64,000 nucleotides of DNA from an uncultured Candidatus Saccharibacteria bacterium (GCA_964648765.1 CAZYLF010000001.1:229797-293796), one strand, 5' to 3'. Shown: positions 2,989 to 64,000, counted from the stretch's first letter. Notes: generated by a model from the letters alone, not told the origin. Numbers and translations: made by a program.

Positions 2989-2989
2989 A

Positions 2990-3030: not shown

Positions 3031-3036
3031 CTTTAA

Positions 3037-31666: not shown

Positions 31667-31672
31667 TTTTTT

Positions 31673-41758: not shown

Positions 41759-42254
41759 AAAGAGCGCCAACATTGCGGTTAAAAATTATTTTCAAACTGC
41801 TGGGCTGTGTGGACCGGCGTCGCTCAAAATTCTTTTTTCATACTTTGGCAAAGATTTTACTGAAGCCCAACTTGCTCAATTGGCCAGCGCCACGCAAGAG
41901 AGTGGTACAGAGCATGAAGGGATGATTAAGGCAGTTAAGGAGATTGGGGCTTACCCATTTGTAAAAGAAAACGGCACGATTGAAGAACTCGAGTATTTTA
42001 TTAAGGAGGAAAAGTTGCCCGTGATAATTGGTTGGTTTGATAAAGATGGCGATCACTATAGTGTGGTAGTAAACATTACTGACAAAAATATTATTATTGT
42101 GGACCCAGCCGTTAATGAGCCAGAGCGCTGGCTTGATCGTGAGACTTTTCCGCAGATTTGGTTTGATTTTGTGGGTAAAGACAATCGAACTGTCTCTTGG
42201 GGATGGTATTTGGTCGCAACGTTTGAGAAAAAAGAATTTAAGATTAAAAAATAA
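41751..42254 (+). CDS. Peptidase C39-like (papain-fold) domain protein
   Basis: QTAGLCGPASLKILFSY contains the Cys of a C39-like Q..CG motif. A downstream GDHYSVVV matches the catalytic His region. Confidence 0.5.
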   Translation: MPEKSANIAVKNYFQTAGLCGPASLKILFSYFGKDFTEAQLAQLASATQESGTEHEGMIKAVKEIGAYPFVKENGTIEELEYFIKEEKLPVIIGWFDKDGDHYSVVVNITDKNIIIVDPAVNEPERWLDRETFPQIWFDFVGKDNRTVSWGWYLVATFEKKEFKIKK

Positions 42255-44032: not shown

Positions 44033-44485
44033 TTAAACTAAGAGTTTTTCAGCAATAGACTTAACCATCATACCGTCAGCCTTACCCTTTAAGTCTTTCA
44101 TTAAAGCCGACATCAGCTTGCCTGAGTCGGCTTTTGTGGTGACACCAAGCTCTGCCATTTTGGCTTTCACCGCTTTCTCCACATCTGCCTCGCTCATCAT
44201 TGTTGGCAAATAAACTTCCACAAATTTAAGCTCGGCTTCTTCCACTTCCACAAGGTCGGTGCGGCCAGCTTCGCGGAATTGAGCAATAGAGTCTTTACGT
44301 TGTTTGGCACTGCGCTGAATGACTGCCATTGTGTCTTCGTCGCTCAACCAGTCGGTGGGCATTTTGCCTTTGGATACTAATTCATTGGTGAAGGCGGTTA
44401 CCAATCCGCGCACCACGCCCAACTTGACGCTATTTTTCTCCATCATTGCTTGTTTAATTTCCCCTTTGATTTGTTCGTGTAGCAT
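44033..44485 (-). CDS. GatB/YqeY domain protein
   Basis: The YqeY N-terminal pattern is present (MLHEQIKGEIKQAMMEK...VRGLVTAFTNE). The start is ATG 44485, which has a TTATAAT box about 11 nt upstream. Confidence 0.75.
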   Translation of the reverse strand: MLHEQIKGEIKQAMMEKNSVKLGVVRGLVTAFTNELVSKGKMPTDWLSDEDTMAVIQRSAKQRKDSIAQFREAGRTDLVEVEEAELKFVEVYLPTMMSEADVEKAVKAKMAELGVTTKADSGKLMSALMKDLKGKADGMMVKSIAEKLLV

Positions 44486-44509
44486 AGTGCGAAGATTATA
44501 ACAAAAAAA

Positions 44510-44529
44510 CACCCCAGGCAAAAGGGGTG
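44510..44529 (-). terminator. Hairpin CACCCC-N8-GGGGTG followed by T-run on minus strand
   Basis: It lies between the small ORF 44555-44752 and yqeY. Confidence 0.45.
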
Positions 44530-44554
44530 CTGAACGAGCGGTTCCTCCTGTGCT

Positions 44555-44752
44555 TTAAGGTTTTGGAGCGTCAATTGCCCTTGTTAGTTTCTCCACAAAG
44601 ACTCGGGGATTAACTCTGCCACTGGCGAGTTCTGAGGACTCCAACATCGCCATCATTATTTCTGGAGATAAAATCAAAACCTTTCCACCAAAAAGGGCAG
44701 ATGTGTCGCAGATAACAAGTGGTTCTTGTTTCTGATCATTTCCGTTAACCAT
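44555..44752 (-). CDS. Small hypothetical ORF (65 aa)
   Basis: The only support is a downstream hairpin with a T-run. Confidence 0.25.
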   Translation of the reverse strand: MVNGNDQKQEPLVICDTSALFGGKVLILSPEIMMAMLESSELASGRVNPRVFVEKLTRAIDAPKP

Positions 44753-44851
44753 TAAAGTTTCCTTAAAAAAGAACCAAGGTTTGATAACTAACCAAAAGCT
44801 ACCACAGCAAACTCTTATCAGTCAACCTTAATTACGGGCTATAATAATGAT

Positions 44852-47791: not shown

Positions 47792-47792
47792 T

Positions 47793-48965
47793 TTACTTAG
47801 TATCTTTTAATCTCAAACTTTGGGTGAGGCCGAGAGCAACGATGATGGATAGGGCTACGAAGATAAAACGGTAGGGGAAGAAGATGAGGAAAATGGAGGC
47901 CAGCAGTGGGGCAATGGAGTGGGCAAGTGGCGCCATCAAACGCGAAGTTGAGAGCACGTCGAGATCGTTGCCATCGATTTTTTTAAATAAATAAGTCTCC
48001 TTCATAATCTCCACTGTGGCTGCTCCCACACGAGTGAGGAAGAGGATCAGCGCCCACACGACTACAATTTTTCCGGTAAAAAAAGCCACAGGCAAAGTGG
48101 CGAGTGCCATAATGGCGAGACCTGCTGTAAGCAACTCCTTTTCCCCCAGCCACTTATCTGCAATAAGCCCAAGCGGATAATCAAAGATTACAAAGGGGAT
48201 CAACATGATAGTTAAGATTTGCCCGATTGTGCCCCAATCAAAACCAAGATAAGTGTTGAGATAAAATGGTGCGTAAATCACCATTATTGAGTAAAAAAAG
48301 TTAAGTAAAAATTCAATAACTAAAATTCTTCTTAAGTTTATTTTGATACTCGTTCGCTCTCCACCAAAAATTTTTGTAAAAGTTTTAAGACTGAAGGGGT
48401 GTTGACCGTGCGTACTTACGCGCGGTGAGTGTGTTTGATAATAAATGGCGATCGCAAGTACTGGCAAGAGAGCAAGTGAGGAGGCGAGATAAACATTTTG
48501 ATAATTATTATTACCAACCAAAATTCCAGCCAAAAGCGGTGAGGCAAGCCACGCGGTGTTTACACAAGTCCAGTAAAGTCCCCGAATGCCACCAGTTTTA
48601 GAGTTTGAAGATGTTTGCTCGAGTAAGAGATCAAGGGTGAGACTCATCAAAATATTGCCGACAAAATAAACACTAAAAGCGCCCACAATAATAATTAAAT
48701 TTTTTGTGTGGCCAAAGGTAGCGAGCGTCACGAGTGAGGCGAGGCTAATTGTGCCTGCGTACAAAATAAATCTGGCCGGTCGGAAGCTCCTAATGAGCGG
48801 CGAGATAAAAAGTATGCCGAGTACGGCAAAAATTGAAGCAACGGTAAAGATTAAACCAACCCTTTTTTCGCCCACTGTGAGGGCTAAAAATGATGAGTTC
48901 ACATAGGCCGGCAAGGCGGCCGTGAGCGCAAGCCAAAAACCAGCTACATAAATTAACCAACGCAT
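47793..48965 (-). CDS. MFS transporter
   Basis: Twelve predicted TM helices in an MFS arrangement. Confidence 0.75.
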   Translation of the reverse strand: MRWLIYVAGFWLALTAALPAYVNSSFLALTVGEKRVGLIFTVASIFAVLGILFISPLIRSFRPARFILYAGTISLASLVTLATFGHTKNLIIIVGAFSVYFVGNILMSLTLDLLLEQTSSNSKTGGIRGLYWTCVNTAWLASPLLAGILVGNNNYQNVYLASSLALLPVLAIAIYYQTHSPRVSTHGQHPFSLKTFTKIFGGERTSIKINLRRILVIEFLLNFFYSIMVIYAPFYLNTYLGFDWGTIGQILTIMLIPFVIFDYPLGLIADKWLGEKELLTAGLAIMALATLPVAFFTGKIVVVWALILFLTRVGAATVEIMKETYLFKKIDGNDLDVLSTSRLMAPLAHSIAPLLASIFLIFFPYRFIFVALSIIVALGLTQSLRLKDTK

Positions 48966-48981
48966 TATTTTATTATAACCT

Positions 48982-50712
48982 CTAAACTTCGATCAAAACA
49001 GGTAAAACGATTGGTCGGTTGTTAGTCTTTTGGTAGAGATAGCGTCCAATATCTTCTCGTACCACGTTTTTAACATAGTCAAAGTTGATTGGATGCATTT
49101 TGGCTGTAGTTTCTTCAATCTTCTTTTTGGCTAAGATTCGCACTTGTCTTAAGAGGTCTTGAGATTCTTTAAGATAAATAAATCCTCGAGAAATAATGTC
49201 TGGTGACTTCACGATCTTACCCGTCTTAATGTCGATCAAAGCAATGATTACGAACATCCCTTCTTGGGCAAGCATCACGCGATCTTTAATCACCACATCC
49301 TTCACATTATTTTTACCCATACCGTCTACCATAATGAGGTTTGAGGAAACCTTTTCTTTAAGCATGTGGATTTTCTCACCGCCATCGGTGATGTCAATCA
49401 CTGAGCCGTTGTCGGGCACTACAATATGATTCGCAGGCATGCCAAGTTCCAGAGCCAATTCTTCATGCAGGCGGAGTTTGTGATGTGAGCCGTGGTTAGG
49501 GATAAAGAATTTAGGTTTAACCTTTTTATGTAACCATTCAATTTCTCCGCGATTGCCGTGACCGGAGGAGTGGATATAAACTTCTGAAGTTCGGTAGCTC
49601 ACAATCTTCGCACCTTGTCGGGCAATATTATCTTTTAGTTTTTGTACGGTGATTTCGTTGCCAGGGATAATAGATGAAGAAAGGAGTACGGTGTCACCTT
49701 TTTTAAATCGTAAGAATTTATGAGTCTTATTCGACATTCTCATTAGTGCGGCAAATTCTTCACCTTGAGCGCCAGTGGCAAGCACCACAATTTTATCTTC
49801 TGGATAATTTCCGATTTCTTGAGTTGGGATTATCACGCCCTTACCCACAGTAAGTAAGCCAGCTTGTGTGGCCACTTCCACGTTAGTTTTCATGCTTCTG
49901 CCTTCAATTACCAATTTACGTCCGTAGCGTTCCACGGCGCCAATGATCTTGATCATACGCTCAAGCTGTGAGGCGAAGGTGCCGATAATTAATCGTCCTT
50001 TAATATTTTTAATTATCTCTTCAAGATTTCTGTTAGTTTCGCCTTCTGGTACGGAGAAGCCTGGATTCTCAATGTTGGTTGAGTCCGCCATTAAAAGCAG
50101 AACCTTCATCTCAGAAAAGATTTTGTAAGTATTTTCTTCAGCCTCGGTGGGTACGCCGTCTACTTTATCAAGATCGAGTTTAAAGTCGCTTGGATTAACA
50201 ATCGCGCCATAAGGAGTATCTATAACTACACCCATGGAGTCGGGGATAGTGTGAGTAACACCGAAAAAGCTAATTGGAATTTGCCCAGCTTTAATTTTAG
50301 TATCCTTTTCTACTTCAATAATATTGAGTGGTGGCAAGTGAGGGAATTCGGCCATGCGCTTCTTCACAAAGAGCGCGGTTAAATTACGAGTATAAAGTGG
50401 GGGATTTCCGATCCGATTCATTACATAAGGAATACCGCCAGTGTGGTCTAAGTGGCCGTGAGTAATAATCACCGCACGCACGCGCGACTTATTCTCCTCC
50501 AAGTAAGTGGTGTCGGGGATGAGGTAATCCACGCCAGGCATGTCGCTGGTAGGGAAGGCGAGACCAATATCAATCACCACAATATCTTCGCCGATTTCCA
50601 CAGCGGTCATATTTTTGCCAATTTCTTCCACACCTCCAAGCGGAATAATTCGGATATTACCTGCTTCTAATTTCGGCACTTTCTTTATTGGTTTTCGGTT
50701 ATCTTGAAACAT
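48982..50712 (-). CDS. rnj: Ribonuclease J (beta-CASP MBL-fold RNase)
   Basis: The HGHLDHTGG motif, a beta-CASP domain and a C-terminal domain are present. The 576-aa length fits RNase J. Confidence 0.9.
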   Translation of the reverse strand: MFQDNRKPIKKVPKLEAGNIRIIPLGGVEEIGKNMTAVEIGEDIVVIDIGLAFPTSDMPGVDYLIPDTTYLEENKSRVRAVIITHGHLDHTGGIPYVMNRIGNPPLYTRNLTALFVKKRMAEFPHLPPLNIIEVEKDTKIKAGQIPISFFGVTHTIPDSMGVVIDTPYGAIVNPSDFKLDLDKVDGVPTEAEENTYKIFSEMKVLLLMADSTNIENPGFSVPEGETNRNLEEIIKNIKGRLIIGTFASQLERMIKIIGAVERYGRKLVIEGRSMKTNVEVATQAGLLTVGKGVIIPTQEIGNYPEDKIVVLATGAQGEEFAALMRMSNKTHKFLRFKKGDTVLLSSSIIPGNEITVQKLKDNIARQGAKIVSYRTSEVYIHSSGHGNRGEIEWLHKKVKPKFFIPNHGSHHKLRLHEELALELGMPANHIVVPDNGSVIDITDGGEKIHMLKEKVSSNLIMVDGMGKNNVKDVVIKDRVMLAQEGMFVIIALIDIKTGKIVKSPDIISRGFIYLKESQDLLRQVRILAKKKIEETTAKMHPINFDYVKNVVREDIGRYLYQKTNNRPIVLPVLIEV

Positions 50713-50737
50713 ATTTATTATTTATTAATTTTATTGA

Positions 50738-52471
50738 TTATTTTTTTGTGAAAAACCCCCAAACTTTTTCTGTTGTGATGTACCATTCATTAATGTTGGT
50801 AAAGCGTTCTGCTGCTAAATTAATTGGTGGTAAATCCTTATTTTTAATTTTGTCTGGTGCTAAATACATAAAGTATGGTTGATAGAGGAAGATGGCTGGA
50901 GTTTCTTTTATTATTTCTTCAGAAATCTCGGCTGACTTGGCTCGTCTGGCACTTGAGTCAGATAGCTTTCGGAGTTCTTCTAACTTTTTATCAACTGTGA
51001 GGTTGGTGTAAAGCGCGATGTTTGAGCCTGGGTCGAGACGTTGTGATGAATGCCAAAATGAGTAGGGGTCGGTATTGCGACCCAACACTTCACCAAAAAA
51101 TAAAGCTTCATATTGACGAGGACGAATTACGTTTTGGTTTAAGTCAGCAATTTCAAAAACTTTAAGTTCCACTTTAGCGCCAATTTCCCCCCAAGTTTTT
51201 TTGAGATTTTCTGCGACTTGCTTTAATTCTGGCACGTCGGATGTGGCCAAACTAAAACTCAAACTAGTGACTTCTTTAGCTTTGTTCGTTTTCTCCATTA
51301 CGCCAGTTTCTGCATTTGGCTTCCAGCCCGCATCGGTTAAAATTTCAATCGGTTTGCCAATTTTCGTGCTACTGGCATTTAGTTCAACACTTTCTGTACT
51401 GTTTTGTGGTGGATCAAAAATTAATAGTGGATCATACACAGCTTGGCCGTAACCTGCTAAAGTACTTTCGATAATTTGTTCACGATTTACCGCCGCATTT
51501 AAGGCGCGTCTTACTTCAGCGTTTGCAAAAAGTGGAGCATGATTTTGGTTAAAAAAGACAGCAAACATTCTTGGTAGTGGTACAGTAAGAATTTTAGCTC
51601 CATCGTCTTCTAACTTTTTGGCCAGGGTCGGTGAGAGACCGCTCACGTTCTCAACCTCGCCACTTTGATACGCTGTGAGCAGTTCAAGTTCATTTGGGTA
51701 AAATTTAACTCGGATGTTACTAATTTTGGCAGCCCCGAGAGTAAAGTTTTCAAACGGTTCTAATTCATAATATTCTGGCAAAGTTGAGGCTCCGCGACGG
51801 AACCTAATGTCGGTAACGAGGTAAGGTCCAGAACCAACTGCTTCAATATTTAGATCGCTGAAGGGGAAGGCCTCTGGTTCAATTTGCTCCCATAAATGTT
51901 TTGGCAAAATTCCGAGCGTGAGATTTTCTAAAAAGGCGTGATAAGGTTGCTTTAAAGTGAATGAGATTTTTCTATCACTTAACTTTTCAACTTTTACGCT
52001 TTCCCAAGTGGACCAACGAGGACTTTTCACCGTTGGATTTTGGATTCGGTTGATTGTAAAGATTACATCATCAGCAGTAATTGACTTTTTGTCGTGAAAG
52101 CGCAAATCATCTTTTAAAGTAATTGTGTAGGTGAGTCCGTCTGGGGAAACTTCGTAACCTTGGGCAAGATCGGGGACTAATTCGCCTTTGGCATTGAGTC
52201 GCATTAAGCCGGAGTATATGAGCATGCTCAGATCACGGTCCACATCAGACACAGCCAACACTGGGTTCACAAATCTTGGTGAACCAATTATCCCTTCCAC
52301 AAAACTTCCACCACGAGTTGGTACGCGATTTAAATAACTACCGTTTAAAATAAGTAGGAGGGCAATTACACTTCCAATTAAAATAATTACTCCCGCCACC
52401 ACTAAATACCATTGCTTGCGAGGCATAGTTTTAATAGCTAAATCAATTTCGGCTTGAGAGGGCCGTTTCAT
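50738..52471 (-). CDS. ABC transporter substrate-binding protein, family 5 (peptide/nickel, OppA-like), membrane-anchored
   Basis: An N-terminal TM anchor is followed by a ~540-aa SBP_bac_5-like layout. Confidence 0.8.
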   Translation of the reverse strand: MKRPSQAEIDLAIKTMPRKQWYLVVAGVIILIGSVIALLLILNGSYLNRVPTRGGSFVEGIIGSPRFVNPVLAVSDVDRDLSMLIYSGLMRLNAKGELVPDLAQGYEVSPDGLTYTITLKDDLRFHDKKSITADDVIFTINRIQNPTVKSPRWSTWESVKVEKLSDRKISFTLKQPYHAFLENLTLGILPKHLWEQIEPEAFPFSDLNIEAVGSGPYLVTDIRFRRGASTLPEYYELEPFENFTLGAAKISNIRVKFYPNELELLTAYQSGEVENVSGLSPTLAKKLEDDGAKILTVPLPRMFAVFFNQNHAPLFANAEVRRALNAAVNREQIIESTLAGYGQAVYDPLLIFDPPQNSTESVELNASSTKIGKPIEILTDAGWKPNAETGVMEKTNKAKEVTSLSFSLATSDVPELKQVAENLKKTWGEIGAKVELKVFEIADLNQNVIRPRQYEALFFGEVLGRNTDPYSFWHSSQRLDPGSNIALYTNLTVDKKLEELRKLSDSSARRAKSAEISEEIIKETPAIFLYQPYFMYLAPDKIKNKDLPPINLAAERFTNINEWYITTEKVWGFFTKK

Positions 52472-52482
52472 TAAATATAAAT

Positions 52483-52728
52483 TTAGAGAAACAAAGCGAT
52501 AATTGCGGACACGATGAAAAGAATTGCAACAATAATTGTGGCAATAAAGATGGTTCGTTCGATTCCGCGCTTGGTGTGGGCAAAGCTTGCGCTCGCACCA
52601 CCGAAGGCACTGCCGAGACTTGCTTCATTTTGCTGAATGAGCACTAGGGCAATGAGGACTACGGACAAACCTACTTGTATCCAAGGTAAAATACTCGCTA
52701 GCATTTCCATTAACGTACACTCTACCAA
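52483..52728 (-). CDS. secG: Preprotein translocase subunit SecG
   Basis: Two TM helices and a Gly-rich loop (LGSAFGGASASFAH) are present. The true start is probably ATG 52710 or 52704. Confidence 0.7.
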   Translation of the reverse strand: MVECTLMEMLASILPWIQVGLSVVLIALVLIQQNEASLGSAFGGASASFAHTKRGIERTIFIATIIVAILFIVSAIIALFL

Positions 52729-52810
52729 AAGTCAAAACGGAATGCAAACTGCATATTTATCCCCCGTTTTTTGTATTTATGTTGGTGTTTATTTGTTATA
52801 ATTTGTCATC

Positions 52811-55800
52811 ATGCCTAAATATAGTCTCGGCGCGAAGTTAATTCTGGTTGGAATATTTTTTTACTCAGCCTACGCCGGGAGTACGATTTACGAGGCTTAT
52901 CTCAACAGCGACTTTTTAGGAAATCTTAAATTAACCGCGCAAACTTACACTCCGCCACCTTCTACACTTAATGCTGTGGCTGACACACAGGTCCGTCAGG
53001 GGGTAAGCACAAACAGTAATGCTAACCTTGAGTACGCAATCTCTAATGACTCAAGTGCCGGCAATCGTCAGACGTATTTAAAATTTGATCTCTCAAATAT
53101 TTCTGGAACAATTTCTTCAGCGAAGTTGAAGGTTTATGTAATTAATACTGACGCCAAACCTATCACAGTCTCTTCTGTTGCAAACGACGCTTGGCAAGAA
53201 TCAACAATGGTTTGGAATACTAAGCCGGCACCAGTTACCTCGCTGGGGACATTAGATGTCTCTACTATTAATTCATATTCCACTGAATTTGATGTTACTA
53301 ACTTTGTTAAGTCTGCAGAAAATTTAAGTGATAAACTAGTTTCCTTTTCTCTTTCATATCCAACTGCCGACAATACAGCCAAGCCGTTTGTGGCGATTAA
53401 CCCAAAAGAAAAAGGTAACGGAGCTCAATTAATAATCACCTACAACTCTGTAACCACCACAACCCCACCACCGACTGCACCGGTCACTCAATCCACTCAA
53501 ACGACACAAACAACTCAGACAACCCAAAATCAAACCGGAGTCGGCGCTTTGGCTGCGGCCGCCCCAGAAACTTACAATCTCACGTTCTCAAATATTTTTG
53601 GCGGATCAGCAGATGATCAAACTCGCGATGTGGCATATGACAGCGCAGGAAATATTTACGCCGTTGGCGGCTCAACAGCCCCAGGGTTTGTGGCAACCGG
53701 AAGTGTTTTTGATACGTCACACAACGGCAACATGGACGCATTTTTGGTTAAACTAAATTCTAGTGGACAAGTACTCTGGTCAACGTTTATTGGCGGGCCA
53801 AATTATGACCGAGCTTATGCGGTGGAAGTAGATTCGGCTGGCAATGTGTTTGTGGCAGGAAGATCTGGCGCCGGTTTCCCAACTACTTTCGGTCCAGGCT
53901 TTCTAAATCAAAATATTAATGGCCCTGGCTATGATGCCAATCCTTACGGTCATCAAAATGCTTTTCTAGCTAAGTTTGATAGCTCCGGCCAGCGTCTCTG
54001 GGCTCGCTACAATCAAAAGACTGGGAACGAGGTTGGATTGTTTCGTGATATTGCCCTTGATTCAAATGGGAATATTTATGGTGTGACTACTGGTTATGGT
54101 TTATTTAAATTTAAAGCAGATGGTACAAACGATTGGGACTTACCATTAAAGGGAAATGGCTCTATTAATATGAATGTCCCTTCTGTTCGGGTTGATGGAC
54201 AAAATAACATTTACGTTTCTGGAGGAACAAACTCAACAAGCGGGTTAACGGTTGGTGGTTATCAATCAACTAATGGGGGAGGTTCAGCAGATATTTATTT
54301 GGCCAAAGTAAATTCAAATGGCAGTGTTGTTTGGGGTACATATGTGGGTGGTACCGGCGAGGAATTTGGCGAGACGCACAACTTGGCAGTCGACCCACAG
54401 AGAAATATTTACTTAGCTTACTCCACTAGGTCAAACGATCTTATCCCGGCCAGCGCCACATTGGATGCCACAAGTTACGATGTTAATTTTGGTGGTGGGG
54501 CAGATGGTTTTATTGCAAAGATCGATACTAATGGAAATTTGAAAGGTGCAACTTATCTCGGTGGTAGCGACGTGGAAGAATTTCAAGGTGTAGATACAGA
54601 TTCGGCTGGCAATGTTTACGTTTCGGGGAAGTCTAAGTCTAATCTTTCTTTAAATAATCCTTTATTCCCCGCCAAACCTTCATCTGTAGGTAATGAAGAT
54701 ATTATTTTTGCCAAGTTTAGTAGTGATCTTGGGAGTTTAGTTTTTGGAACGTATTTTGGGGGTAGTACTAGTGAGAGTGGTCGCTCGCTCGATGTGCATA
54801 CCTCTGGCGCAGTGGCGGTTGGTGGCCAGAACTCTGCTTCCGGTAACAGTGGTGTAGTTTTAGGATATGTGCAAGGTTCAGCTCCAACTGGTGATCAAAC
54901 TCCACCAACACTCTCCAACCTTTTACCTTCTGGCACAATTGCGGCCTTACCTTTACCTATTCTGTCAGTAACGACTAACGAGGCTGCAACTTGTCGTTGG
55001 AGCACCACTGCCAATGCCAGTTTCAGTAATATGAATGCCATGACAGCGCTTGGCAATGTGCACACCTCACTTGGACTCTCAGGTTTACTTGCTGGTAGTT
55101 CTTACAACCGTTATGTTCGTTGCCAAGACACTTCTGCTAATCAGAACATGAGTGCCGAGTCGACGATTACTTTTACGATTTCTATTACTGTCGGTGGTAG
55201 TCTCCCGCAATGTGTTGCCGCCGCTAACCACGATTTGCCAGCCACCGGTACTTCAATTGGTTCTGGTTTGCCCTCGAATTTCGAGGGCAGCGGAGTGGAG
55301 TGGCATTCAGTTAGAAATAGCTTCTTTCTTGTTCATGATGGAGGCACGCTCTTTGAGCGAAGGGCAGACGGAACGGCGGTGGCCCAATGGAGTATTGGTG
55401 GAGATCTAGAGGGCGTGACGGTTGCCGACCCAAATAGTAATTTTATTTATGTGGGAGTTGAGGACCCAGACAGTATTAGAGAAATTAATTTAATAAATGG
55501 GCAAGTCACGCGTACCTTCGACCTTACGCCTTGGATGACTGGTGCCGCTAACTCCGGACTGGAGGCGATCACTTTTGCCCCGATTGCTGGTCACCCTGAA
55601 GGCGGAATCTTTTATGCTGGTCTGCAAGCCGATGGTGATATTTACGCCTTTAGCTTGCCGATTAAATCCAGTGCCACCTCTGTCACGGTTACATCACTAA
55701 ATGATCCACTAAATCCAACTAACTATTATAAAATTACTGGCAATAGCACAAACACAGATATTGCCGGCATGGATTATGATTCATCGATAGATGTGCTCTA

Positions 55801-58800
55801 TGTTTTGTATGATTCTAATAATTTACTTCAAGCATTAAATACTAAACGTGCCGCAGTCTCTGGCGCTACCTATGGCAGTGTTATTGAGTTCTGGGACTGG
55901 AATACTACAGATGATAGAGAAGGTATAGATATACATAACTGTCAGCTTTATGTCACCACTGATCACGCGGGAGCACCAAAAGGAGACTTTTTGTATTTCC
56001 CATTTGCGGGTTGTATTGCTTCTTGCAGCGCTCCAGCGGGGGATACCACCGACCCCACAACTCCTGGCACACCTACAGCTACAGTAGTTTCAAGTTCACA
56101 AATTAATTTATCTTGGGGAGCTTCAACCGACGCTGTGGGAGTAACAGGTTACAGAATTTATTTAAACGGCACAGCTAACCCTGCCAATTTACTAACTACT
56201 GTCACAGGCCTTTCATATTCACACACTGGTCTTGCCGCCAGCACTGTACACACCTATCGCGTCACCGCCATCGACGCCGCCGGCAATGAGTCCGCCTTTG
56301 CCGGCCCCGTGAGCGCCACGACACAAGCGCCACCAACAAACGTGTCTTGCCCGCAAGGCTCGCTAGCTAGTCGTTGTTCTGGTGTGGCACCACTCGGAGT
56401 ATTCTTTGATGCCACCAATCTAACTTTTAATGGCGTTGCTAGACCATTCCATGATCTTGAGTACGAGTGGAACTTTGGTGACCTAGCTTCTGGTAACTGG
56501 AGCACGAACGGTAAAAGTAAAAATATTGCTTATGGTGCGGTAGCCGCCCACGTATTTGAAAGTGTAGGCACTTTTAATGTAAATCTTAAAGTTAGAAATG
56601 GAACTAGTATTTTGCATGACCAAAATTACCCAATTTCTGTCGGTTCATTTTTGGCCCTGCCAAGCGCCCAGACAATGTGTTTGTCTAACTCCGGCATCGA
56701 CACAAGTTGCGCGCCAAGTGCTATAGCGGAAAATAATTTCGACGAGGCGTTCGACTGGCTATTCCAGAGTGACGGCCCCAGACGAGTTTTGGTAAAAGAG
56801 GGTGAGACATTTAGCAATCTAGTTCCACGGGCGGGGAGTACACAAATATCAGATAGAACTGGCCCATTTATTTTAGGCACCTATGGAAGTGGAGCCAAAC
56901 CCGTTGTGAACATGTTGCATAATAGCTGGTTACAACTCTCTAACACCACCAAAGACGTGGTATTCGATAATATTGAATTTAAGGGTAAATATAACATGAC
57001 GAGCGCCCCGGCAACTTTTACTGGTGATAATCGTCTTAGTACTGATGGCGAACACGTACTGTTTCAGGGACTAAAGGTGAGCGGTATGAATTATGGTATC
57101 TCTTGGGGTGGTAAAAATGTATTTATCCATGACAGTGTTGTAGAACTCCAGCACGACTACAACGTCTTTGGTTCTGGCGATAACTTCTCTGCTCAAGGTC
57201 TCCGTTTGGGTAGCGTGGCCAATGAAAGTAACATGAGGAATACAAGCGCAAGAAAAGCTGTTTACTCCCATAATATATTTAAACCAACGATACACTATGT
57301 AAGATTCGAGACCAATTTCAGACTCCATGGATCTGATCAACCAGGAAAGAATACTAGATATGTGATAATTTCTGATAATGAATTTACCCGTAATCCTGGC
57401 ATAGGCAATGTTGGTGGTGGACCAAACGTGGGGCCTGGTAATGGTTCCAATCCAGACGGGAGTATACCAAGAGAGGTTGTGGACGATGTAATTGTGGAGA
57501 GGAATATGATGCGGATAACCACGTCTGAGGGCACCATGAACGCAATGGATGTTTGCACCATGAATAACCTGACTATCCGTAATAACATTTTTTCTGGACC
57601 TCATAATGGAGGAGTTGGACTGTGTAGTTCAACGTACCCGGGTTGGGATAGGGGGGCAACTCGAGTTGATGTGTACAACAACACAATGTCGGCTTCAGGT
57701 GACCCAAGATTTATTGCAGTTGGTAATTTTGGGACGGGTCCGACAACGTGGAATATCCGAAACAACATTGCCAATATTCCAAGCGCCACACAGGTTTCTA
57801 TTAATTCTCGGAGAATGGCCGTGGACAACATTAACGAATCCAATAACATTTGGTTTAAGGCTGGCCAGTATCTTGCTGAAATCCCAGTGGACAACATTCC
57901 TACGCCAGTGACTTATTCATGGAGTAAGGTGGCAGGGTCTGGGACAGTGCAGTTTTCGAGTTCCAATATTGTAAATCCTTCCGTCACCATTAGCACACCG
58001 GGCCAGTACTTACTTAGATTAACCTCCACAGATGGTTCTCGGACTGCTTCAGACGATGTATTTATTGATTATTTGAGTGCCGCTAATCCGACTACTAAGT
58101 TCAATATCGGCGCGCCAATTTCTGTGTCAGTTCCAACTGCTACAGTCTATTCGTCGGCTTCTGCAAGTAGTGCACTTGGCACACAGAATAACGGCGCTCC
58201 GGGTTTAGTTATTAGCGGTCCGGTTACTAACGCTTCAGGAACTTGGTGGGAAGTAGACTTTAACAATGGTGTGGATGGTTGGGTGGATGGGGCGGTGATT
58301 AAAATGAGGAAGTCACACATTGTTAATCCCTCGAACGCTGATCCACTGCTCGATATTACACGGCAAGGTGATATTAGCACTCAAACCGGGCAAATTTCTT
58401 TAGACCCGACGGTTGTTGAGAGATTTTCTTTAACTACTTGGAAATCTTGTGCCGTTGGCCATGCATGTAAAGGTCAGAATAGTTTTAATTCGGATCCAAA
58501 CATAGACCCAACTAATTTTAGTTTAACTTCCTCCAGTGTGGCAGCAATTAACACTGGTACATCTATGCCAGTCTGGAAGGATTTTGCTAGCAATGTTCGT
58601 CCGTTCAGCAATACAAATTACGACATTGGTGCGTATGAATCTGGCTCAACGGTTTCTCCAACTACTTACACTATCAATGCCACAGCTGGATCAAATGGTT
58701 TCATTTCTCCGTCAGGTTCAGTAAGTGTTAATTCTGGCGCTTCGCAAACTTTTATTTTTACCCCATTAAATTCAAGTTTCCAGGTTGCCACTGTCACAGT

Positions 58801-61800
58801 TAATGGTTCACTCGTTCCTAATCCAGGGGCTAGTTACACTTTTAATAATGTCACAAGTAACGGCCAAACAATAAATGTCACTTTTGCTCCTGTTTCAGTG
58901 GTTGATCTGTTGCCCCCAGTAGTTTCATTAACTAACCCATCTGCCGGTGCGATAGTTGAGGGCGTGGTTAATCTTAGTGCCGATGCCACGGATGATGTGG
59001 GGGTGCTCGATGTCCAGTTTAGGGTTGATGGAGTTAATTTAGGTAATCCGGTGATCGGCATCAATCCTTATATTAAAAGTTGGGATACAACCGCTCTGGC
59101 AAATAATTCCCAGCACATCATCACTGCTGTGGCACGTGACGCTTCTGGCAAAAGCACTACATCATTACCAATTACGGTAACAGTAAATAGAGCTCCACCG
59201 GTTGTGATTAGCGCCATGACCGCTACCACCTTTATTCCACCAACCCCAGCAATGTTGGCGGTGACGGCCGCTGATGTTACTGGCCCTGTAACTTGCCGAT
59301 TCAGTAATGTGGCCAATACCTCATTCGCCCAAATGCCAATTGGTAACACTCTTACCGCAAACGGTATCACTCATTCTTATAATTTTGGCACTTCACTCGC
59401 TGCCGGTAACTACATATATTATGTACGTTGCCAAGACTCGGCCGTTCCGCCAAACGCTAATACCCAAGATCTCACAATTAGCTTTACCGTCGGCACAACT
59501 CAAACCAACGACACCGCTGCACCATCTGTCCCACAAAATTTATCTGCCACAGCAATCTCCAGTTCACAAATTACTTTAAATTGGACTGCTTCCACTGATA
59601 ACACCGCCGTAACAGGCTACCGCATCTTCCGGGGGACTGATCTCATTAACCCAGTTGCTACTTCCACTGGCACTGGTGTTACTTTTACTGATTCAGGTTT
59701 ACAAGCGAGCACTCAGTACATCTACCGCATTGCCGCTATTGATGCTGCTAATAATCAATCAACACTCTCGGCTCAAGCGAGCGCCACAACGCAGGCACCG
59801 CCAGCAGGTGGAACAACATATTCCCTAAGTTTGATTAGTGATGATTCTGGTAGTATCACGCCAAACCCACCTCAGTCAGAATATACTCCTGGTGCAGTTG
59901 TTACTCTCACAGCTACTCCAGCGTTTGGTTATCAGTTTACTGGTTGGACTGGAGCACTCACGGGGACGACCAATCCAGCGACGCTTACTATGGATGCTAA
60001 TAAGACCGTAACTGCAAGTTTTGTGTTGGTTGGAAATGGAAACTATCAGATTGGTGATCGGATAAAGGTTGTGGACGGACCAACAGTAATTTTTGATGTT
60101 ATTTCATCAGCATCTAACAGTCAGGGTAGTCAGTATACTAGTTCGCCTGGGACAATCATTGGTGGCCCAGCAACAGCTGCAAACGGGTCAGTGTTTTGGC
60201 AAACTGATTTTGATATCAACCCCGATGGTTGGGTAGATCAATCGGATACCATTTTGTCGCCACAAAGTAACGACGCCCTTGCGCCTTATGTGGAAGTGCG
60301 GAGATTTACTCCCGAGGATGTTAGTGGAACAATTACCTTTACTGCTGACGTGCTTGACCCAGTCCTTTCCAACGAGACAACATCCGGCATAGCTGGTGTC
60401 CGCTTTATTGTTGACGGTCAGATGATTGGTGCAGAAGATACTTTTGCTCCTTATCAGATAAGCTGGAATTCTCGATCTCTCTCTAACGGTTATCACGTGG
60501 TAACGGCGATCAGTCGTGACAATGCCAGAAACACTCGGCGCGCTCCACCCACGGTTATTCATATTGTTAACCCGACCACTCCTAAAGAAATTTATTATAT
60601 TTCTAATACTGGCAGTGACACCAATGACGGTCTGCATCCAACGCAAGTGGGTCCGGGTCAGGGTCCTTGGCAAACAATCGCTAAGGTTCAAACAAATATG
60701 GGTAATCCTGGCACCAAATTTTTATTCAAACGAGGTGGAGTTTATCCTGTTACAGCTATGGTCTCTAACGACCCTGGCTTAATCAGAATTACTCATGTTC
60801 GAGACTTGAGTTTTAGTAGTTATTACAATAGTGATGGCAGTGACGATCCTTCTCTACCACGGCCGGTGATTAAGGGTGACGGCACCAAACATATTTTTGG
60901 TTATTATTATGGGGGTGTTGGTGTTAATGGGCGAAGGACACAAAATGATCTTAATTATTTGATTGAAAATCTTCGTCTCGAGAATCCAATTGGTAATAAT
61001 AGTGGTGGTGGAATGAGGCTAAATAATGATCCATTTGTTCTTGGAACCCTTACTATGCGAAATCTGGAGATAGTTGGTGGCAATGTTGCTATGGTAGTTA
61101 CTGGCACCCAGCGATACATTTTAGAAAATAGTATTATTCATGATACCTGGTCCGGCCCATTTGCTGGTGGTGCCGGTGACAGTATTATCCGGAATAATAA
61201 ATTTTACGCTTGCGGTTTAGAACCGACAGCTACACAGGGTTCTGGGTTACATCAACATTGTATTTACGCTACCGCTAATCCGGAATCATTTAACTTGCTG
61301 ATTGAAAACAATAGTTTTGAAAGTAGCCCCCTTAGCCCGGGAGTGATTGTTGTTTCTCGAGTCAAAGAAGGTAATTATATCCGCAATAATCATATTTATT
61401 CTAGTTTTGCGTCTGATTATGGGATCGGTATCGCTCCTGGGGGTACATCTGGTTCCGAAGTTAATATTCAGCATTTTCGCGATATTGAGATTTCAGGCAA
61501 TTTTGTGACCGGTAACGGTGATGCTATTAGTCTCGGTGGTGTTAGTGATGTCAGAGTTTTTAATAATATACTTAATGATCAGCAGAACAGGTTATCCTTT
61601 AGTTTGGATTTTGCAAACACCATTAATAAATATGTTCGTTTCTTTAACAACACTATTTATAATTTCGGTGGAGATAACTCTGGTGCACCAATTATCCGTG
61701 TTGATGGTAGCGTGAGTACTGCTGGTGAGCGACGGAGCACCTATGTGCAGGTGGTCAATAACGTCATCTTTGCTAACCGGCCGAAAATATTCCATTATAA

Positions 61801-64000
61801 AGCAAGTACCCCAGCAATCGATCCAACGGTTACAATTAAGAACAATTTATACCGCTTACCCAACACTGGCTCAAATATCAAACCATTTATAATTGATCCA
61901 AATTCTCCACCAGTTAATACTCCAGTTGGGAGCTATACTTTGTCGGAATTCCAAACTCAATTCGGTCAAGATTTAGCCAGTAGCTATGGTGATCCACTTT
62001 TTGTTAATTCTAGTTTGCCACTTGGTTCTGATGATTTGATCGGTACGACAGATGACGGCTTGATTATTTCTACAGCTCAAAGTCCAGCAATAAATCAAGG
62101 TGTTTCATTCTCCGGTGTTGAATTATTTAATCGAGACATATTGGATACAATTAGACCACAGGGTGCCGCTTACGATCTAGGAGCTTATGAATTTACTGGC
62201 TCTACTCCTAATCCAAGCACCTTTACCATCTCCATCACTAAACAAGGTACCGGTACTGGCACAGTAGCCGGCGGTGGAATAAATTGTGGCAACACCTGCT
62301 CAGCAACTTTAAATTCTGGGGCGAGTGTCGATCTTTTGGCTACACCTACACTTGGCCATACCTTTGCCGGCTGGAGCGGAGCAGTAACAGGTACGACCAA
62401 TCCAATCACGGTCACGATGAACGGTAACAAAGATGTTACAGCTACCTTTAATCTCACAACTCAAGATCCAGCGCCAACTGTTACTAATGCTACTTCCCCA
62501 TCATTTACTTTACCCGCTCAAGCGGTTTTGAATGTCACAACAAGCGAGAATGCTAATTGCAAATGGTCAGCTAACCAAACTGCCACTTACGCACAGATGA
62601 CCGATTTCCTTACCACTGGAAATATTTCCCACGCGCATTCACTGGGCGTTTTGGCTGGTTCTGTTTCTCCTGGTACCCCTTATACTTACTACGCACTCTG
62701 CCAAGATGGAACTGGTAATATTAGTACCCCAACCACCGCAATAACTTTTAATGTTATTTCTGCCACAGTTCAGACCAATCAACCCCCAACCGTCAATGCA
62801 GGATCAGATAATTCCATTACTCTTCCTACTAACTCTTATAGTTTAAATGCCACAGTTAGCGATGATGGATTACCTGCTTCGCCTGGCCTTGTCACAACTA
62901 GTTGGAGTCGAGTAAGCGGACCCACCAATGTCACGTTTGCTAATGCGGGCGCGGTGGATACAACCGTGAGTGGCTTAACTAATACTACGGCACCGTATGT
63001 ACTTCGATTATCGGCTGATGATGATGGCGCTGGACCCAACGCGGCGGTAATTGACGATATACAGATTACTGTCAATCCAGCTGTTGTGGTAGACAACACC
63101 CCACCTACAATTCTTAGCTCCTCACCAAGTGGCACACTTGCGGTGGGCACTACTCAAGTAACGATGCAAGTAGTAACGGATGAGAACGCCACTTGTAAAT
63201 GGGGCACTGCTTCAAACACCTATACTGGATTGCCAAACACATTCACCACCACCGGCACCACCAATCATTCACAAACCTTATCTGGTCTCATTCCAAACAG
63301 TTACACCAGGTACGTGCGTTGCCGCGACCTTTCTGCCAACTTAAACTTCAACACTACTGACACTGTAATCACCTTCACCATCCCAAATAATCCAGATACC
63401 ACTGATCCATCAGTGCCGGTAAATGTGCAAGCATCGGCTAATTCTTCTACTCAAATTAATGTGACTTGGGATGCTTCCACCGACGTGTCGCCAGCCGGGC
63501 AAGCAAGTTCTGGTGTGGCGGGTTATCGCGTGTACCGTTTACCAGACACCACTAACCCAGTTGGTTCACCTACCACTAATTCATTCTCCCACACCGGTTT
63601 AAGTCCTAACACTTCCCATCAATATCGCGTCTCAGCAATTGATAATGCGGGTAATGTTTCTAATCTTTCAATCGCGTCTGCTTCAGTAACTACACCAAAT
63701 CTCCCAGATACTGCAGCACCAAATATTACCAACACCACTCAAGCCACCTTCCCGGCGCCTACAACACAGGTGGCAGTGAGCGTGACCACCAACGAGCCTG
63801 CCACTTGTCGCATTGGCACAAGTGATGTTGCCTTCGGTTCATTACCAGCAAATTCTATGACGGCTGGAGCGGTCTCCAATAATTTTTACCCCCACCAATC
63901 AGCATTAATTTCTGGTCTAACACCAAACACGAATCATACACGTTATATTCGTTGCCAGGATTCTGTTCTTAACACTAATCAAGCAGGTGTCCGTGTAGAC
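52811..64000 (+). CDS. Giant extracellular multidomain protein (3'-truncated by window edge; >3700 aa)
   Basis: The frame is open from ATG 52811 to the window end; I checked codon continuity at several points. The domain content is:
- a signal peptide;
- an N-terminal beta-sandwich (TYLKFDLS...VWNTKP);
- SBBP-type beta-propeller repeats (D.AGN.Y..G);
- several FN3 domains;
- a PKD domain;
- a right-handed beta-helix region;
- Big-like domains;
- at least five Cys-bracketed repeats ending YVRCQD.
A TGTTATAAT box lies 9 nt before the ATG. Confidence 0.75.
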   Translation, partial: MPKYSLGAKLILVGIFFYSAYAGSTIYEAYLNSDFLGNLKLTAQTYTPPPSTLNAVADTQVRQGVSTNSNANLEYAISNDSSAGNRQTYLKFDLSNISGTISSAKLKVYVINTDAKPITVSSVANDAWQESTMVWNTKPAPVTSLGTLDVSTINSYSTEFDVTNFVKSAENLSDKLVSFSLSYPTADNTAKPFVAINPKEKGNGAQLIITYNSVTTTTPPPTAPVTQSTQTTQTTQTTQNQTGVGALAAAAPETYNLTFSNIFGGSADDQTRDVAYDSAGNIYAVGGSTAPGFVATGSVFDTSHNGNMDAFLVKLNSSGQVLWSTFIGGPNYDRAYAVEVDSAGNVFVAGRSGAGFPTTFGPGFLNQNINGPGYDANPYGHQNAFLAKFDSSGQRLWARYNQKTGNEVGLFRDIALDSNGNIYGVTTGYGLFKFKADGTNDWDLPLKGNGSINMNVPSVRVDGQNNIYVSGGTNSTSGLTVGGYQSTNGGGSADIYLAKVNSNGSVVWGTYVGGTGEEFGETHNLAVDPQRNIYLAYSTRSNDLIPASATLDATSYDVNFGGGADGFIAKIDTNGNLKGATYLGGSDVEEFQGVDTDSAGNVYVSGKSKSNLSLNNPLFPAKPSSVGNEDIIFAKFSSDLGSLVFGTYFGGSTSESGRSLDVHTSGAVAVGGQNSASGNSGVVLGYVQGSAPTGDQTPPTLSNLLPSGTIAALPLPILSVTTNEAATCRWSTTANASFSNMNAMTALGNVHTSLGLSGLLAGSSYNRYVRCQDTSANQNMSAESTITFTISITVGGSLPQCVAAANHDLPATGTSIGSGLPSNFEGSGVEWHSVRNSFFLVHDGGTLFERRADGTAVAQWSIGGDLEGVTVADPNSNFIYVGVEDPDSIREINLINGQVTRTFDLTPWMTGAANSGLEAITFAPIAGHPEGGIFYAGLQADGDIYAFSLPIKSSATSVTVTSLNDPLNPTNYYKITGNSTNTDIAGMDYDSSIDVLYVLYDSNNLLQALNTKRAAVSGATYGSVIEFWDWNTTDDREGIDIHNCQLYVTTDHAGAPKGDFLYFPFAGCIASCSAPAGDTTDPTTPGTPTATVVSSSQINLSWGASTDAVGVTGYRIYLNGTANPANLLTTVTGLSYSHTGLAASTVHTYRVTAIDAAGNESAFAGPVSATTQAPPTNVSCPQGSLASRCSGVAPLGVFFDATNLTFNGVARPFHDLEYEWNFGDLASGNWSTNGKSKNIAYGAVAAHVFESVGTFNVNLKVRNGTSILHDQNYPISVGSFLALPSAQTMCLSNSGIDTSCAPSAIAENNFDEAFDWLFQSDGPRRVLVKEGETFSNLVPRAGSTQISDRTGPFILGTYGSGAKPVVNMLHNSWLQLSNTTKDVVFDNIEFKGKYNMTSAPATFTGDNRLSTDGEHVLFQGLKVSGMNYGISWGGKNVFIHDSVVELQHDYNVFGSGDNFSAQGLRLGSVANESNMRNTSARKAVYSHNIFKPTIHYVRFETNFRLHGSDQPGKNTRYVIISDNEFTRNPGIGNVGGGPNVGPGNGSNPDGSIPREVVDDVIVERNMMRITTSEGTMNAMDVCTMNNLTIRNNIFSGPHNGGVGLCSSTYPGWDRGATRVDVYNNTMSASGDPRFIAVGNFGTGPTTWNIRNNIANIPSATQVSINSRRMAVDNINESNNIWFKAGQYLAEIPVDNIPTPVTYSWSKVAGSGTVQFSSSNIVNPSVTISTPGQYLLRLTSTDGSRTASDDVFIDYLSAANPTTKFNIGAPISVSVPTATVYSSASASSALGTQNNGAPGLVISGPVTNASGTWWEVDFNNGVDGWVDGAVIKMRKSHIVNPSNADPLLDITRQGDISTQTGQISLDPTVVERFSLTTWKSCAVGHACKGQNSFNSDPNIDPTNFSLTSSSVAAINTGTSMPVWKDFASNVRPFSNTNYDIGAYESGSTVSPTTYTINATAGSNGFISPSGSVSVNSGASQTFIFTPLNSSFQVATVTVNGSLVPNPGASYTFNNVTSNGQTINVTFAPVSVVDLLPPVVSLTNPSAGAIVEGVVNLSADATDDVGVLDVQFRVDGVNLGNPVIGINPYIKSWDTTALANNSQHIITAVARDASGKSTTSLPITVTVNRAPPVVISAMTATTFIPPTPAMLAVTAADVTGPVTCRFSNVANTSFAQMPIGNTLTANGITHSYNFGTSLAAGNYIYYVRCQDSAVPPNANTQDLTISFTVGTTQTNDTAAPSVPQNLSATAISSSQITLNWTASTDNTAVTGYRIFRGTDLINPVATSTGTGVTFTDSGLQASTQYIYRIAAIDAANNQSTLSAQASATTQAPPAGGTTYSLSLISDDSGSITPNPPQSEYTPGAVVTLTATPAFGYQFTGWTGALTGTTNPATLTMDANKTVTASFVLVGNGNYQIGDRIKVVDGPTVIFDVISSASNSQGSQYTSSPGTIIGGPATAANGSVFWQTDFDINPDGWVDQSDTILSPQSNDALAPYVEVRRFTPEDVSGTITFTADVLDPVLSNETTSGIAGVRFIVDGQMIGAEDTFAPYQISWNSRSLSNGYHVVTAISRDNARNTRRAPPTVIHIVNPTTPKEIYYISNTGSDTNDGLHPTQVGPGQGPWQTIAKVQTNMGNPGTKFLFKRGGVYPVTAMVSNDPGLIRITHVRDLSFSSYYNSDGSDDPSLPRPVIKGDGTKHIFGYYYGGVGVNGRRTQNDLNYLIENLRLENPIGNNSGGGMRLNNDPFVLGTLTMRNLEIVGGNVAMVVTGTQRYILENSIIHDTWSGPFAGGAGDSIIRNNKFYACGLEPTATQGSGLHQHCIYATANPESFNLLIENNSFESSPLSPGVIVVSRVKEGNYIRNNHIYSSFASDYGIGIAPGGTSGSEVNIQHFRDIEISGNFVTGNGDAISLGGVSDVRVFNNILNDQQNRLSFSLDFANTINKYVRFFNNTIYNFGGDNSGAPIIRVDGSVSTAGERRSTYVQVVNNVIFANRPKIFHYKASTPAIDPTVTIKNNLYRLPNTGSNIKPFIIDPNSPPVNTPVGSYTLSEFQTQFGQDLASSYGDPLFVNSSLPLGSDDLIGTTDDGLIISTAQSPAINQGVSFSGVELFNRDILDTIRPQGAAYDLGAYEFTGSTPNPSTFTISITKQGTGTGTVAGGGINCGNTCSATLNSGASVDLLATPTLGHTFAGWSGAVTGTTNPITVTMNGNKDVTATFNLTTQDPAPTVTNATSPSFTLPAQAVLNVTTSENANCKWSANQTATYAQMTDFLTTGNISHAHSLGVLAGSVSPGTPYTYYALCQDGTGNISTPTTAITFNVISATVQTNQPPTVNAGSDNSITLPTNSYSLNATVSDDGLPASPGLVTTSWSRVSGPTNVTFANAGAVDTTVSGLTNTTAPYVLRLSADDDGAGPNAAVIDDIQITVNPAVVVDNTPPTILSSSPSGTLAVGTTQVTMQVVTDENATCKWGTASNTYTGLPNTFTTTGTTNHSQTLSGLIPNSYTRYVRCRDLSANLNFNTTDTVITFTIPNNPDTTDPSVPVNVQASANSSTQINVTWDASTDVSPAGQASSGVAGYRVYRLPDTTNPVGSPTTNSFSHTGLSPNTSHQYRVSAIDNAGNVSNLSIASASVTTPNLPDTAAPNITNTTQATFPAPTTQVAVSVTTNEPATCRIGTSDVAFGSLPANSMTAGAVSNNFYPHQSALISGLTPNTNHTRYIRCQDSVLNTNQAGVRVD

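Follow-up and report, generated by a model that had tools for sequence, protein, structure and literature searches.

What kind of protein is encoded by the giant open reading frame (ORF) in which the DNA analysed here comes to its end, and is the Cys-bracketed unit that recurs along it a new domain? The window, meaning the whole stretch of 64,000 nucleotides under study (GCA_964648765.1 CAZYLF010000001.1:229797-293796, from an uncultured Candidatus Saccharibacteria bacterium), had been described from its sequence in an initial annotation, which proposed a giant secreted multidomain protein of a candidate phyla radiation (CPR) organism and singled out an unrecognised unit, present at least five times, whose two cysteines suggested a disulfide-stapled immunoglobulin (Ig)- or fibronectin type III (FN3)-like module. 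Here we present a computational analysis of the ORF, of its domain organization and of the family to which the unit belongs. The unit proves to be a derived branch of a known type of FN3 domain, its family extends far beyond the CPR, and its two cysteines are gained and lost together.

Translation of positions 52811-64000 on the plus strand gave 3,730 codons without a stop, and the frame is still open at the end of the window; an in-frame TAA at 52799 leaves the ATG at 52811 as the only possible start. Using an exact-protein look-up of the genes neighbouring the ORF, we retrieved Logan contig SRR14271335_46772 (15,578 nucleotides), which corresponds to window positions 44469-60046 with 0 mismatches. 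This contig ends at window position 60046, within the giant gene, between a Flg_new_2 and a Big_7 domain, where no obvious repeat is seen; a loss of coverage or variation among strains could account for the break. Codons 1-2,412 are thus reproduced by an independent assembly, whereas the remaining 1,318 (2,413-3,730) come from the present assembly alone. The single frame of more than 3,700 codons therefore stands as first described; the frameshift or stop that would divide it into several genes is absent from codons 1-2,412 in both assemblies, and from codons 2,413-3,730 in the one assembly that covers them.

A frame of this length might be an artefact of assembly or annotation, with several genes fused by mis-assembly across repeats. 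In keeping with this, the Logan contig stops within the gene, the last 1,318 codons stand without independent support, and the giant protein itself was absent from a collection of 5.8 billion proteins when queried with an internal segment from the first putative beta-helix region. These points are set against 15.6 kb of perfect agreement with an independent assembly over 2,412 codons, 11.2 kb of a single frame free of stops, a uniform GC content (44.9% in the ORF, 43.1% in the rest of the window), repeat copies that are too divergent to collapse, and proteins of the same family with 5,000-6,000 residues known elsewhere, so that we regard an artefact as highly improbable. The pairwise identity among the five copies of the unit, 26-47%, indicates old duplications rather than assembly stutter, and a BLAST self-comparison of the protein detected no internal repeats at E<=1e-3 because the copies are too diverged. 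Beyond position 64000, an exact 60-mer search of genome and metagenome contigs gave no match for the continuation, and a protein-based scan of metagenome contigs returned only distant fragments of at most 48% identity.

All five expected copies of the Cys-bracketed unit were located in the translated protein (Table 1), and each scores 96-115 bits against a hidden Markov model (HMM) of the unit. As these five units themselves served as seeds for the HMM, their scores are partly circular; support that is not circular comes from homologues outside this protein which share the signature, and these establish the family as real. None of the five units matches Pfam significantly (to E<=10), the best being a 15.7-bit match of unit 5 to Pur_ac_phosph_N. 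No NCBIfam model recognises the window units, and the proteins of the wider family give only FN3-like NCBIfam matches below threshold. Also, no description of a Cys-bracketed module of this kind was found in the literature.

Structure prediction assigned the unit to a fold class with confidence. AlphaFold, run on unit 4 with 11 aligned sequences, returned an all-beta domain with a predicted local distance difference test score (pLDDT) of 90.9, the Ig/FN3-type sandwich that had been anticipated; as a predicted sandwich of ~90 residues with seven strands in Ig/FN3 topology, the unit belongs to the FN3 superfamily at the level of fold. Foldseek found no close representative (best E 1.8e-3, TM-scores <=0.63). 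A profile search of PDB picked out the FN3 domain of chitinase A1 (1k85) at E 0.006-0.008, and an hhalign comparison with the three FN3 domains of the giant protein plus one Ser/Ser sister aligned strands E-G at 88.9% probability (E 2.4e-6), Cys78 coming to lie on the F-strand Ala position of FN3.

The sister units just mentioned make the kinship specific. We identified 26 units without the cysteines in the same protein families, mostly with Ser at both positions, which align to the unit HMM over their full length; the HMM matches the Ser/Ser sisters at 21-38 bits over nearly the whole length. Their consensus reads ATITW-TT[ND]E.A.S.V.YG...TSHS..LSGL...T.YHYRV.S.D..GN. When eight were tested, seven passed the curated cutoff for Pur_ac_phosph_N and six that for fn3, with full-length coverage. 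Since the sisters are curated members of Pur_ac_phosph_N and fn3, the Cys unit is a derived branch of Pur_ac_phosph_N-type FN3, and the profile-profile alignment and this transitive link, both drawn from sequence, place it clearly in the FN3 superfamily at the level of homology.

Taken singly, however, the Cys units remain below every curated cutoff. The 25-bit cutoff of Pfam fn3 (PF00041) was reached by none of the five window units, and only 2 of 40 diverse family units scanned one at a time matched it at E<=0.01. The B-strand Trp of fn3 is absent, position 26 being Leu in 44%, Val in 31% and Phe in 11% of Cys units; Trp occupies this position in 20 of the 26 Ser/Ser sisters. Pur_ac_phosph_N (PF16656, cutoff 30 bits) was passed neither by the best window unit nor by the best family unit (E 8.8e-5). 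At E<=0.01 the 40 family units matched Pur_ac_phosph_N in 10 cases and Big_13 in 9, and other families in 3 at most (Y_Y_Y in 3). No single-domain match covering most of the profile was obtained for Big_13, DUF7800 or Y_Y_Y; the best Big_13 stretches run over profile positions ~53-100 of 102, a few of them from position 23. The partial matches to Big_13, fn3 and Y_Y_Y centre on the half of the unit that reads 'GL..G..Y.Y.V...D..GN', and multi-copy proteins clear some whole-protein cutoffs, that of Pur_ac_phosph_N among them, only by summing partial matches. The description of the unit as an unrecognised domain consequently holds for curated Pfam and NCBIfam models applied unit by unit and fails for fold and superfamily, neither of which is new. 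Likewise, membership in a known FN3 or Big subfamily is borne out as descent from FN3 and not as a curated match of any single unit.

Over ~650 units of the family, Cys34 is conserved in 96% and Cys78 in 95%, next to P4, D80, F94, N84, P11, T28 and E30 at 88-98% and H59, Y44 and M47 at 82%. Both cysteines are present in 619 units, neither in 26 (mostly Ser/Ser), and a single one in 0 (Fisher p = 6e-47). This strict co-gain and co-loss argues that the two are disulfide partners, in agreement with the pairing first suggested, and an intradomain Cys34-Cys78 bond is the arrangement that we infer. The giant protein has 26 Cys in its 3,730 residues, all in near-neighbour pairs, a pattern that fits an oxidised extracellular protein.

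The Ser/Ser sisters also provide a register for the two positions, in which the Trp at position 26 marks strand B, T-[ND]-E the BC loop and S34-x-V-x-Y-G strand C; the strand spacing in the AlphaFold model agrees with the seven strands of the FN3/I-set layout, residues 37-48 being free of any strand. Together, register and spacing put the first Cys where strand C begins and the second close to where strand F ends, so that the bond would join the neighbouring antiparallel strands C and F of one sheet, near the pole formed by the BC and FG loops. The canonical cross-sheet B-F disulfide of Ig domains was considered and is disfavoured by the same register. An isopeptide or Thr-Gln ester cross-link was likewise rejected as the cause of the conserved T/E/H/D residues, as the required Lys or Gln is not conserved; position 35 is Arg in 48% and Lys in 44% of units, and only 32% have Gln at position 79. 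The Ser/Ser sisters, too, mostly retain T28 and H59. A further, optional pair of cysteines at positions 51 and 61, 10 residues apart around a conserved T-G-G turn, is complete in 93 units, single in 3 and missing from 557, and thus occurs in ~14% of family units and in none of the five window units; its pattern implies a second disulfide across the hairpin.

A word-indexed search had yielded only eight short fragments with the signature TxExATC[RK][WY]...YYVRCQD..GN. An exhaustive HMMER search of 1.84 billion cluster representatives yielded far more, namely 8,492 proteins at E<=1e-3, a number that falls to 4,702 at E<=1e-10 and to 890 at E<=1e-30. The host proteins reach ~6,000 residues and up to 43 matched stretches; the best 150 contain 640 units, the median protein having 3. 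An N-terminal hydrophobic segment is present in 103 of the 138 family proteins that begin with Met. The named members among those seen are all 'hypothetical protein', for example in Paceibacterota, Staskawiczbacteria and Woesearchaeota. Giants with 20-43 matched stretches include P0094 (6,033 residues, Woesearchaeota, MBI3051823.1), P0010 (5,994 residues) and P0128 (5,271 residues); a DPANN archaeon is thus among their hosts, and those that bear names are all annotated 'hypothetical'.

Among GTDB species representatives, 298 loci were confirmed, of which 79 were kept and assigned to taxa by their record titles; all are metagenome-assembled genomes. CPR bacteria account for 31 of the 79, Acidobacteriota for 13, Archaea for 9 (7 DPANN, 1 Methanosarcinales and 1 unclassified) and Bdellovibrionales or Bacteriovoracaceae for 8, the remainder belonging to Geobacter, beta-proteobacteria, Rokubacteria, Acidimicrobiales, Omnitrophota, Thiodiazotropha, Negativicutes and others. 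As loci similar to the CPR query are ranked higher, these counts are no test of enrichment. The large family so revealed, with its 8,492 representative clusters and many phyla, free-living ones included, shows that the module is special neither to this protein nor to the CPR.

The domain organization of the whole protein was determined from Pfam and NCBIfam scans of the complete translation and of overlapping segments (Table 1). The N-terminus, MPKYSLGAK-LILVGIFFYSAYA-GS, shows by eye a basic n-region, a hydrophobic core and an A-x-A site, and thus appears laid out like a Sec signal peptide. Pfam bore out this part of the initial annotation for SBBP, for FN3 (three domains), for PKD (one) and for Big (Big_7, twice); the annotation had overlooked the CBM96/DNRLRE module, whose membership is attested by both curated profiles, two K319L-like PKD domains and two Flg_new_2 domains. 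The founding member of CBM96 binds alginate, and DNRLRE domains are known from the S-layer proteins of archaea as well as from alginate, hyaluronate and pectate lyases (PMC9971899). The possible second propeller, residues 800-1084, had no match among PDB sequences. In other genomes, one of them from a CPR bacterium, an SBBP propeller like that of residues 260-695 also occurs in ORFs and proteins of the Cys-unit family (L028, from the complete genome of a Candidatus Moraniibacteriota bacterium, CP064994.1; P0049; P0067), and 'SBBP propeller plus Cys unit' may be a recurring arrangement.

The pectate-lyase-like beta-helix of the initial annotation found no support from profiles or structure. Region 1 has only two weak homologues among the 5.8 billion proteins. 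In region 2 the NN.I motif recurs every 22-38 residues, a spacing consistent with a parallel beta-helix; here NosD was matched at 17.3-17.9 bits, below its cutoff of 23.6, and the choice-of-anchor-Q model above its own. A catalytic role for either region is conjecture.

Table 1. Features of the giant ORF, with residues of its translation and positions in the window
Feature	Residues	Window positions	Strand	Basis
Giant ORF, at least 3,730 codons		52811..64000	+	stop-free translation; start fixed by in-frame stop; Logan contig identity
Signal-peptide-like N-terminus, ...SAYA / GS	1-23	52811..52879	+	by eye from sequence
CBM96/DNRLRE carbohydrate-binding module	50-211	52958..53443	+	PF24517 104 bits (cutoff 26); NF033679 70.7 bits (cutoff 34)
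SBBP beta-propeller	~265-690	53603..54880	+	Pfam SBBP 56 bits, two overlapping segments; NCBIfam LipL53-type SBBP 92.5 bits
Cys-bracketed unit 1, Cys728/Cys771	696-790	54896..55180	+	unit HMM 110 bits
Possible YjiK/SdiA-regulated-type propeller	800-1084	55208..56062	+	sub-threshold PF06977, E 0.004, 16.9 bits (cutoff 21)
Classical FN3 no. 1	1085-1164	56063..56302	+	Pfam fn3 30.2 bits
PKD	1202-1266	56414..56608	+	Pfam PKD 28.3 bits (cutoff 23.5)
Putative beta-helix 1	1280-1700	56648..57910	+	NN.I-type sequence pattern only
K319L-like PKD no. 1	1700-1752	57908..58066	+	PF22352 30.5 bits
Big_7 no. 1	2036-2106	58916..59128	+	PF17957 50.3 bits
Cys-bracketed unit 2, Cys2162/Cys2207, without T-N-E motif	2127-2227	59189..59491	+	unit HMM 98 bits
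Classical FN3 no. 2	2240-2323	59528..59779	+	Pfam fn3 40.5 bits
Flg_new_2 (InlB B-repeat-like) no. 1	2337-2405	59819..60025	+	PF18998 58.8 bits
Big_7 no. 2	2504-2566	60320..60508	+	PF17957 33.6 bits
Putative right-handed beta-helix 2; choice-of-anchor-Q at 3089-3128	2590-3140	60578..62230	+	NF041518 47.7 bits (cutoff 25)
Flg_new_2 no. 2	3152-3214	62264..62452	+	PF18998 39.5 bits
Cys-bracketed unit 3, Cys3250/Cys3297	3218-3315	62462..62755	+	unit HMM 97.5 bits
K319L-like PKD no. 2	3330-3421	62798..63073	+	PF22352 55.6 bits in whole-protein scan, 43.6 in segment scan
Cys-bracketed unit 4, Cys3462/Cys3504	3429-3524	63095..63382	+	unit used for AlphaFold
Classical FN3 no. 3	3535-3616	63413..63658	+	Pfam fn3 32.4 bits
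Cys-bracketed unit 5, Cys3666/Cys3715, cut by window end	3634-3730	63710..64000	+	unit HMM 96 bits

The giant gene lies in a housekeeping neighbourhood, as the genes that precede it encode SecG, an SBP_bac_5 solute-binding protein, RNase J, an MFS transporter and an AddA-type helicase-nuclease. In NCBI, the window's housekeeping genes are found on one contig of 553,057 nucleotides. All named matches of its CTP synthase (PyrG), at 70-74% identity, are to Paceibacterota, Pacebacteria, Vogelbacteria or Patescibacteria, except for one labelled 'bacterium'; they support a Paceibacterota-type CPR bacterium as the host and agree with the CPR origin first suggested.

Taken together, the ORF probably encodes a giant Sec-exported CPR protein, at the cell surface or extracellular, in which glycan-binding heads are carried on a chain of Ig-fold spacers, the disulfide-locked FN3 units among them. 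The heads would be the N-terminal CBM96/DNRLRE module, the SBBP beta-propeller, the possible second propeller and the two probable beta-helix regions, strung along small Ig-fold spacers of the FN3, PKD, Big_7 and Flg_new_2 types. The five Cys-bracketed units would add a further type of spacer, a branch of Pur_ac_phosph_N-type FN3 in which the B-strand Trp was lost and a Cys pair took the place of two Ser in contact with each other, the one where strand C starts and the other close to where strand F ends. The pair most probably forms an intradomain disulfide that links adjacent strands within one sheet, close to the BC/FG-loop pole, and such a bond would lock the module so that it resists unfolding and proteolysis once it is outside the cell. 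The CBM96/DNRLRE module would serve polysaccharide recognition, the propellers and probable beta-helices would be further binding or catalytic heads, and the whole protein would bind, and perhaps cut, polysaccharide on another cell or in a matrix. Host attachment by this protein, as first envisaged, is plausible from the architecture.

Several points weigh against this account. The ORF is open at position 64000, and hence the C-terminus and any anchor lie beyond the window. The C-F assignment of the disulfide derives from the homology register and strand spacing rather than from model coordinates; when the unit is aligned, weakly, to PDB 1k85 by HMMER, the first Cys falls on strand B instead. 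No gene of the Dsb or VKOR type, encoding a disulfide-forming enzyme, was detected among the scanned ORFs of the window. Beta-helix 1 has no Pfam match at E<=10 and no PDB sequence match; beta-helix 2 has no significant PDB sequence match, and its single-sequence AlphaFold model (pLDDT 32) was unusable. Finally, the conserved polar residues T28, E30 and H59 (82-89% in the Cys units) are left unexplained by a purely structural role; they may form a metal site, an interdomain contact or a loop scaffold.

This last point bears on what the units do. They might be binding modules, with a polar cluster at one pole (T28, N/D29, E30, H59, D80, N84) for a metal or for a ligand on the partner cell, or the same-sheet disulfide might act as a redox or force-sensitive switch. 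The cluster residues are 82-97% conserved over the ~650 units, more than would strictly be required of a spacer, and on FN3 topology they would be gathered in or next to the BC, C'E and FG loops at one shared pole; moreover, some family proteins consist almost wholly of tandem units (up to 43 matched stretches), so that their function must reside in the units. Nevertheless, D80 and G83-N84 are ordinary FN3 hallmarks that the Ser/Ser sisters and the FN3 domain of chitinase A1 have as well, window unit 2 has no T-N-E motif and yet retains its Cys pair, and long tandem arrays are typical of stalks. A binding or switching role is for these reasons unlikely. Rather unlikely, too, is that the protein is mainly a secreted polysaccharide-degrading complex for nutrient scavenging, with catalytic beta-helices targeted by CBM96. 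Such a complex would agree with the occurrence of CBM96/DNRLRE modules in alginate, hyaluronate and pectate lyases (PMC9971899), with the choice-of-anchor-Q domain and NosD-like signal in beta-helix region 2, and with the oligopeptide-type solute-binding protein and MFS transporter encoded next door, but Pfam, NCBIfam and PDB sequence searches revealed no catalytic family, beta-helix 1 is essentially without homologues, and DNRLRE is equally at home in S-layer proteins.

A bolder reading, which we put forward as speculation and consider improbable, would make the Cys/Cys FN3 branch a distinct uncatalogued family that marks the contact-dependent surface machinery of ultra-small episymbionts and predators (CPR, DPANN, Bdellovibrionales and Omnitrophota), with the C-F disulfide, joined in some units by the 51/61 pair, as a mechanical clamp or redox-sensitive latch. 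If true, the clamp or latch would set the reach and stiffness of giant attachment proteins and would be a functional element, not a neutral stabiliser.

The FN3 fold and superfamily are well known, and the finding is unlikely to surprise a specialist in bacterial surface proteins. What is new is an uncurated, very large and apparently disulfide-bearing FN3 branch inside an otherwise orphan giant CPR protein with the features expected of a surface protein. Thousands of large secreted proteins from uncultivated lineages, including CPR, DPANN, predatory bacteria and Acidobacteriota, carry the module, and a dedicated profile would allow annotators to recognise extracellular stalks and to tell spacers from functional heads. 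Additionally, the strict alternation of Cys-Cys and Ser-Ser at two contacting positions offers a clean natural case of disulfide gain in an FN3 core, of use in studies of protein stability and in protein engineering. Within this CPR genome, its architecture makes the protein a candidate part of a cell-surface contact or glycan-harvesting apparatus.

Other features of the window were noted in passing. A LOOT RNA (Rfam RF03000, 72 bits against a gathering threshold of 46.4) at 19319-19441 on the minus strand overlaps the start of a 401-residue ORF at 18190-19395 (minus strand), the C-terminal half of which matches NucI/EcnA-type thermonucleases; the RNA may be the 5' leader of this nuclease gene. 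The segment 20862-26183 holds a primase-like ORF (20862-23051), two ORFs without a Pfam match (23056-23634 and 23774-24370) and, on the plus strand, a large serine recombinase gene (24520-26172) whose 3' end overlaps a tRNA-Gln(CTG) on the minus strand (26112-26183), and may be an integrated mobile element. A SAM-I riboswitch (31568-31668, plus strand, 59.8 bits) lies directly upstream of metK (31721-32656, plus strand), a textbook arrangement met here in a CPR genome. Also present is a stand-alone Peptidase_C39 ORF of 167 residues (41751-42254, plus strand, 63.9 bits), without an attached ABC transporter domain.

Comparison with known systems sets both the protein and its units in context. 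In its architecture, the protein resembles the adhesive or degradative giants that have been discussed for bacteria living as predators or episymbionts (bioRxiv 10.1101/2023.11.21.568195), and comparison with the neck of the grappling-hook protein GhpA (PDB 9flp) and with the surveyed giants gave 20% identity and nothing beyond generic fold. The present protein differs from those giants in its Sec-type N-terminus and in an architecture peculiar to it. Among structures, Ig-superfamily domains (MAG, OBCAM, LILR, titin and antibody V) are prominent among the best matches of the unit, beside bacterial Ig/FN3 domains. The units resemble I-set and V-set domains in having an F-strand Cys in a Y-x-C-like context, but no sequence homology to canonical Ig domains and no Foldseek match at E<=1e-3 were found.

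Classical FN3 domains are closer. That of chitinase A1 (1k85) is homologous to the Cys units over strands E-G and is likewise a linker in multidomain extracellular proteins, and three classical copies share the giant ORF with the Cys units; the N-terminal half of the units, however, cannot be aligned with classical FN3 by profile methods, and classical FN3 has no conserved core disulfide. The closest relatives are the Pur_ac_phosph_N-type FN3 domains (PF16656), which are common among the proteins that uncultivated bacteria and archaea secrete, with the consensus W-T-T-[ND]-E-x-A-x-S-x-V-x-Y-G ... H-S ... L-x-G-L ... Y-x-Y-R-V-x-S-x-D-x-x-G-N. Both types have the same length and predicted sandwich, share T-[ND]-E, H-S, G-L, the Tyr-corner and D-x-x-G-N, and co-occur in proteins; they differ in that Leu or Val replaces the B-strand Trp in the Cys units, position 36 is Tyr or Trp there, and positions 34 and 78 carry Cys/Cys instead of Ser/Ser.

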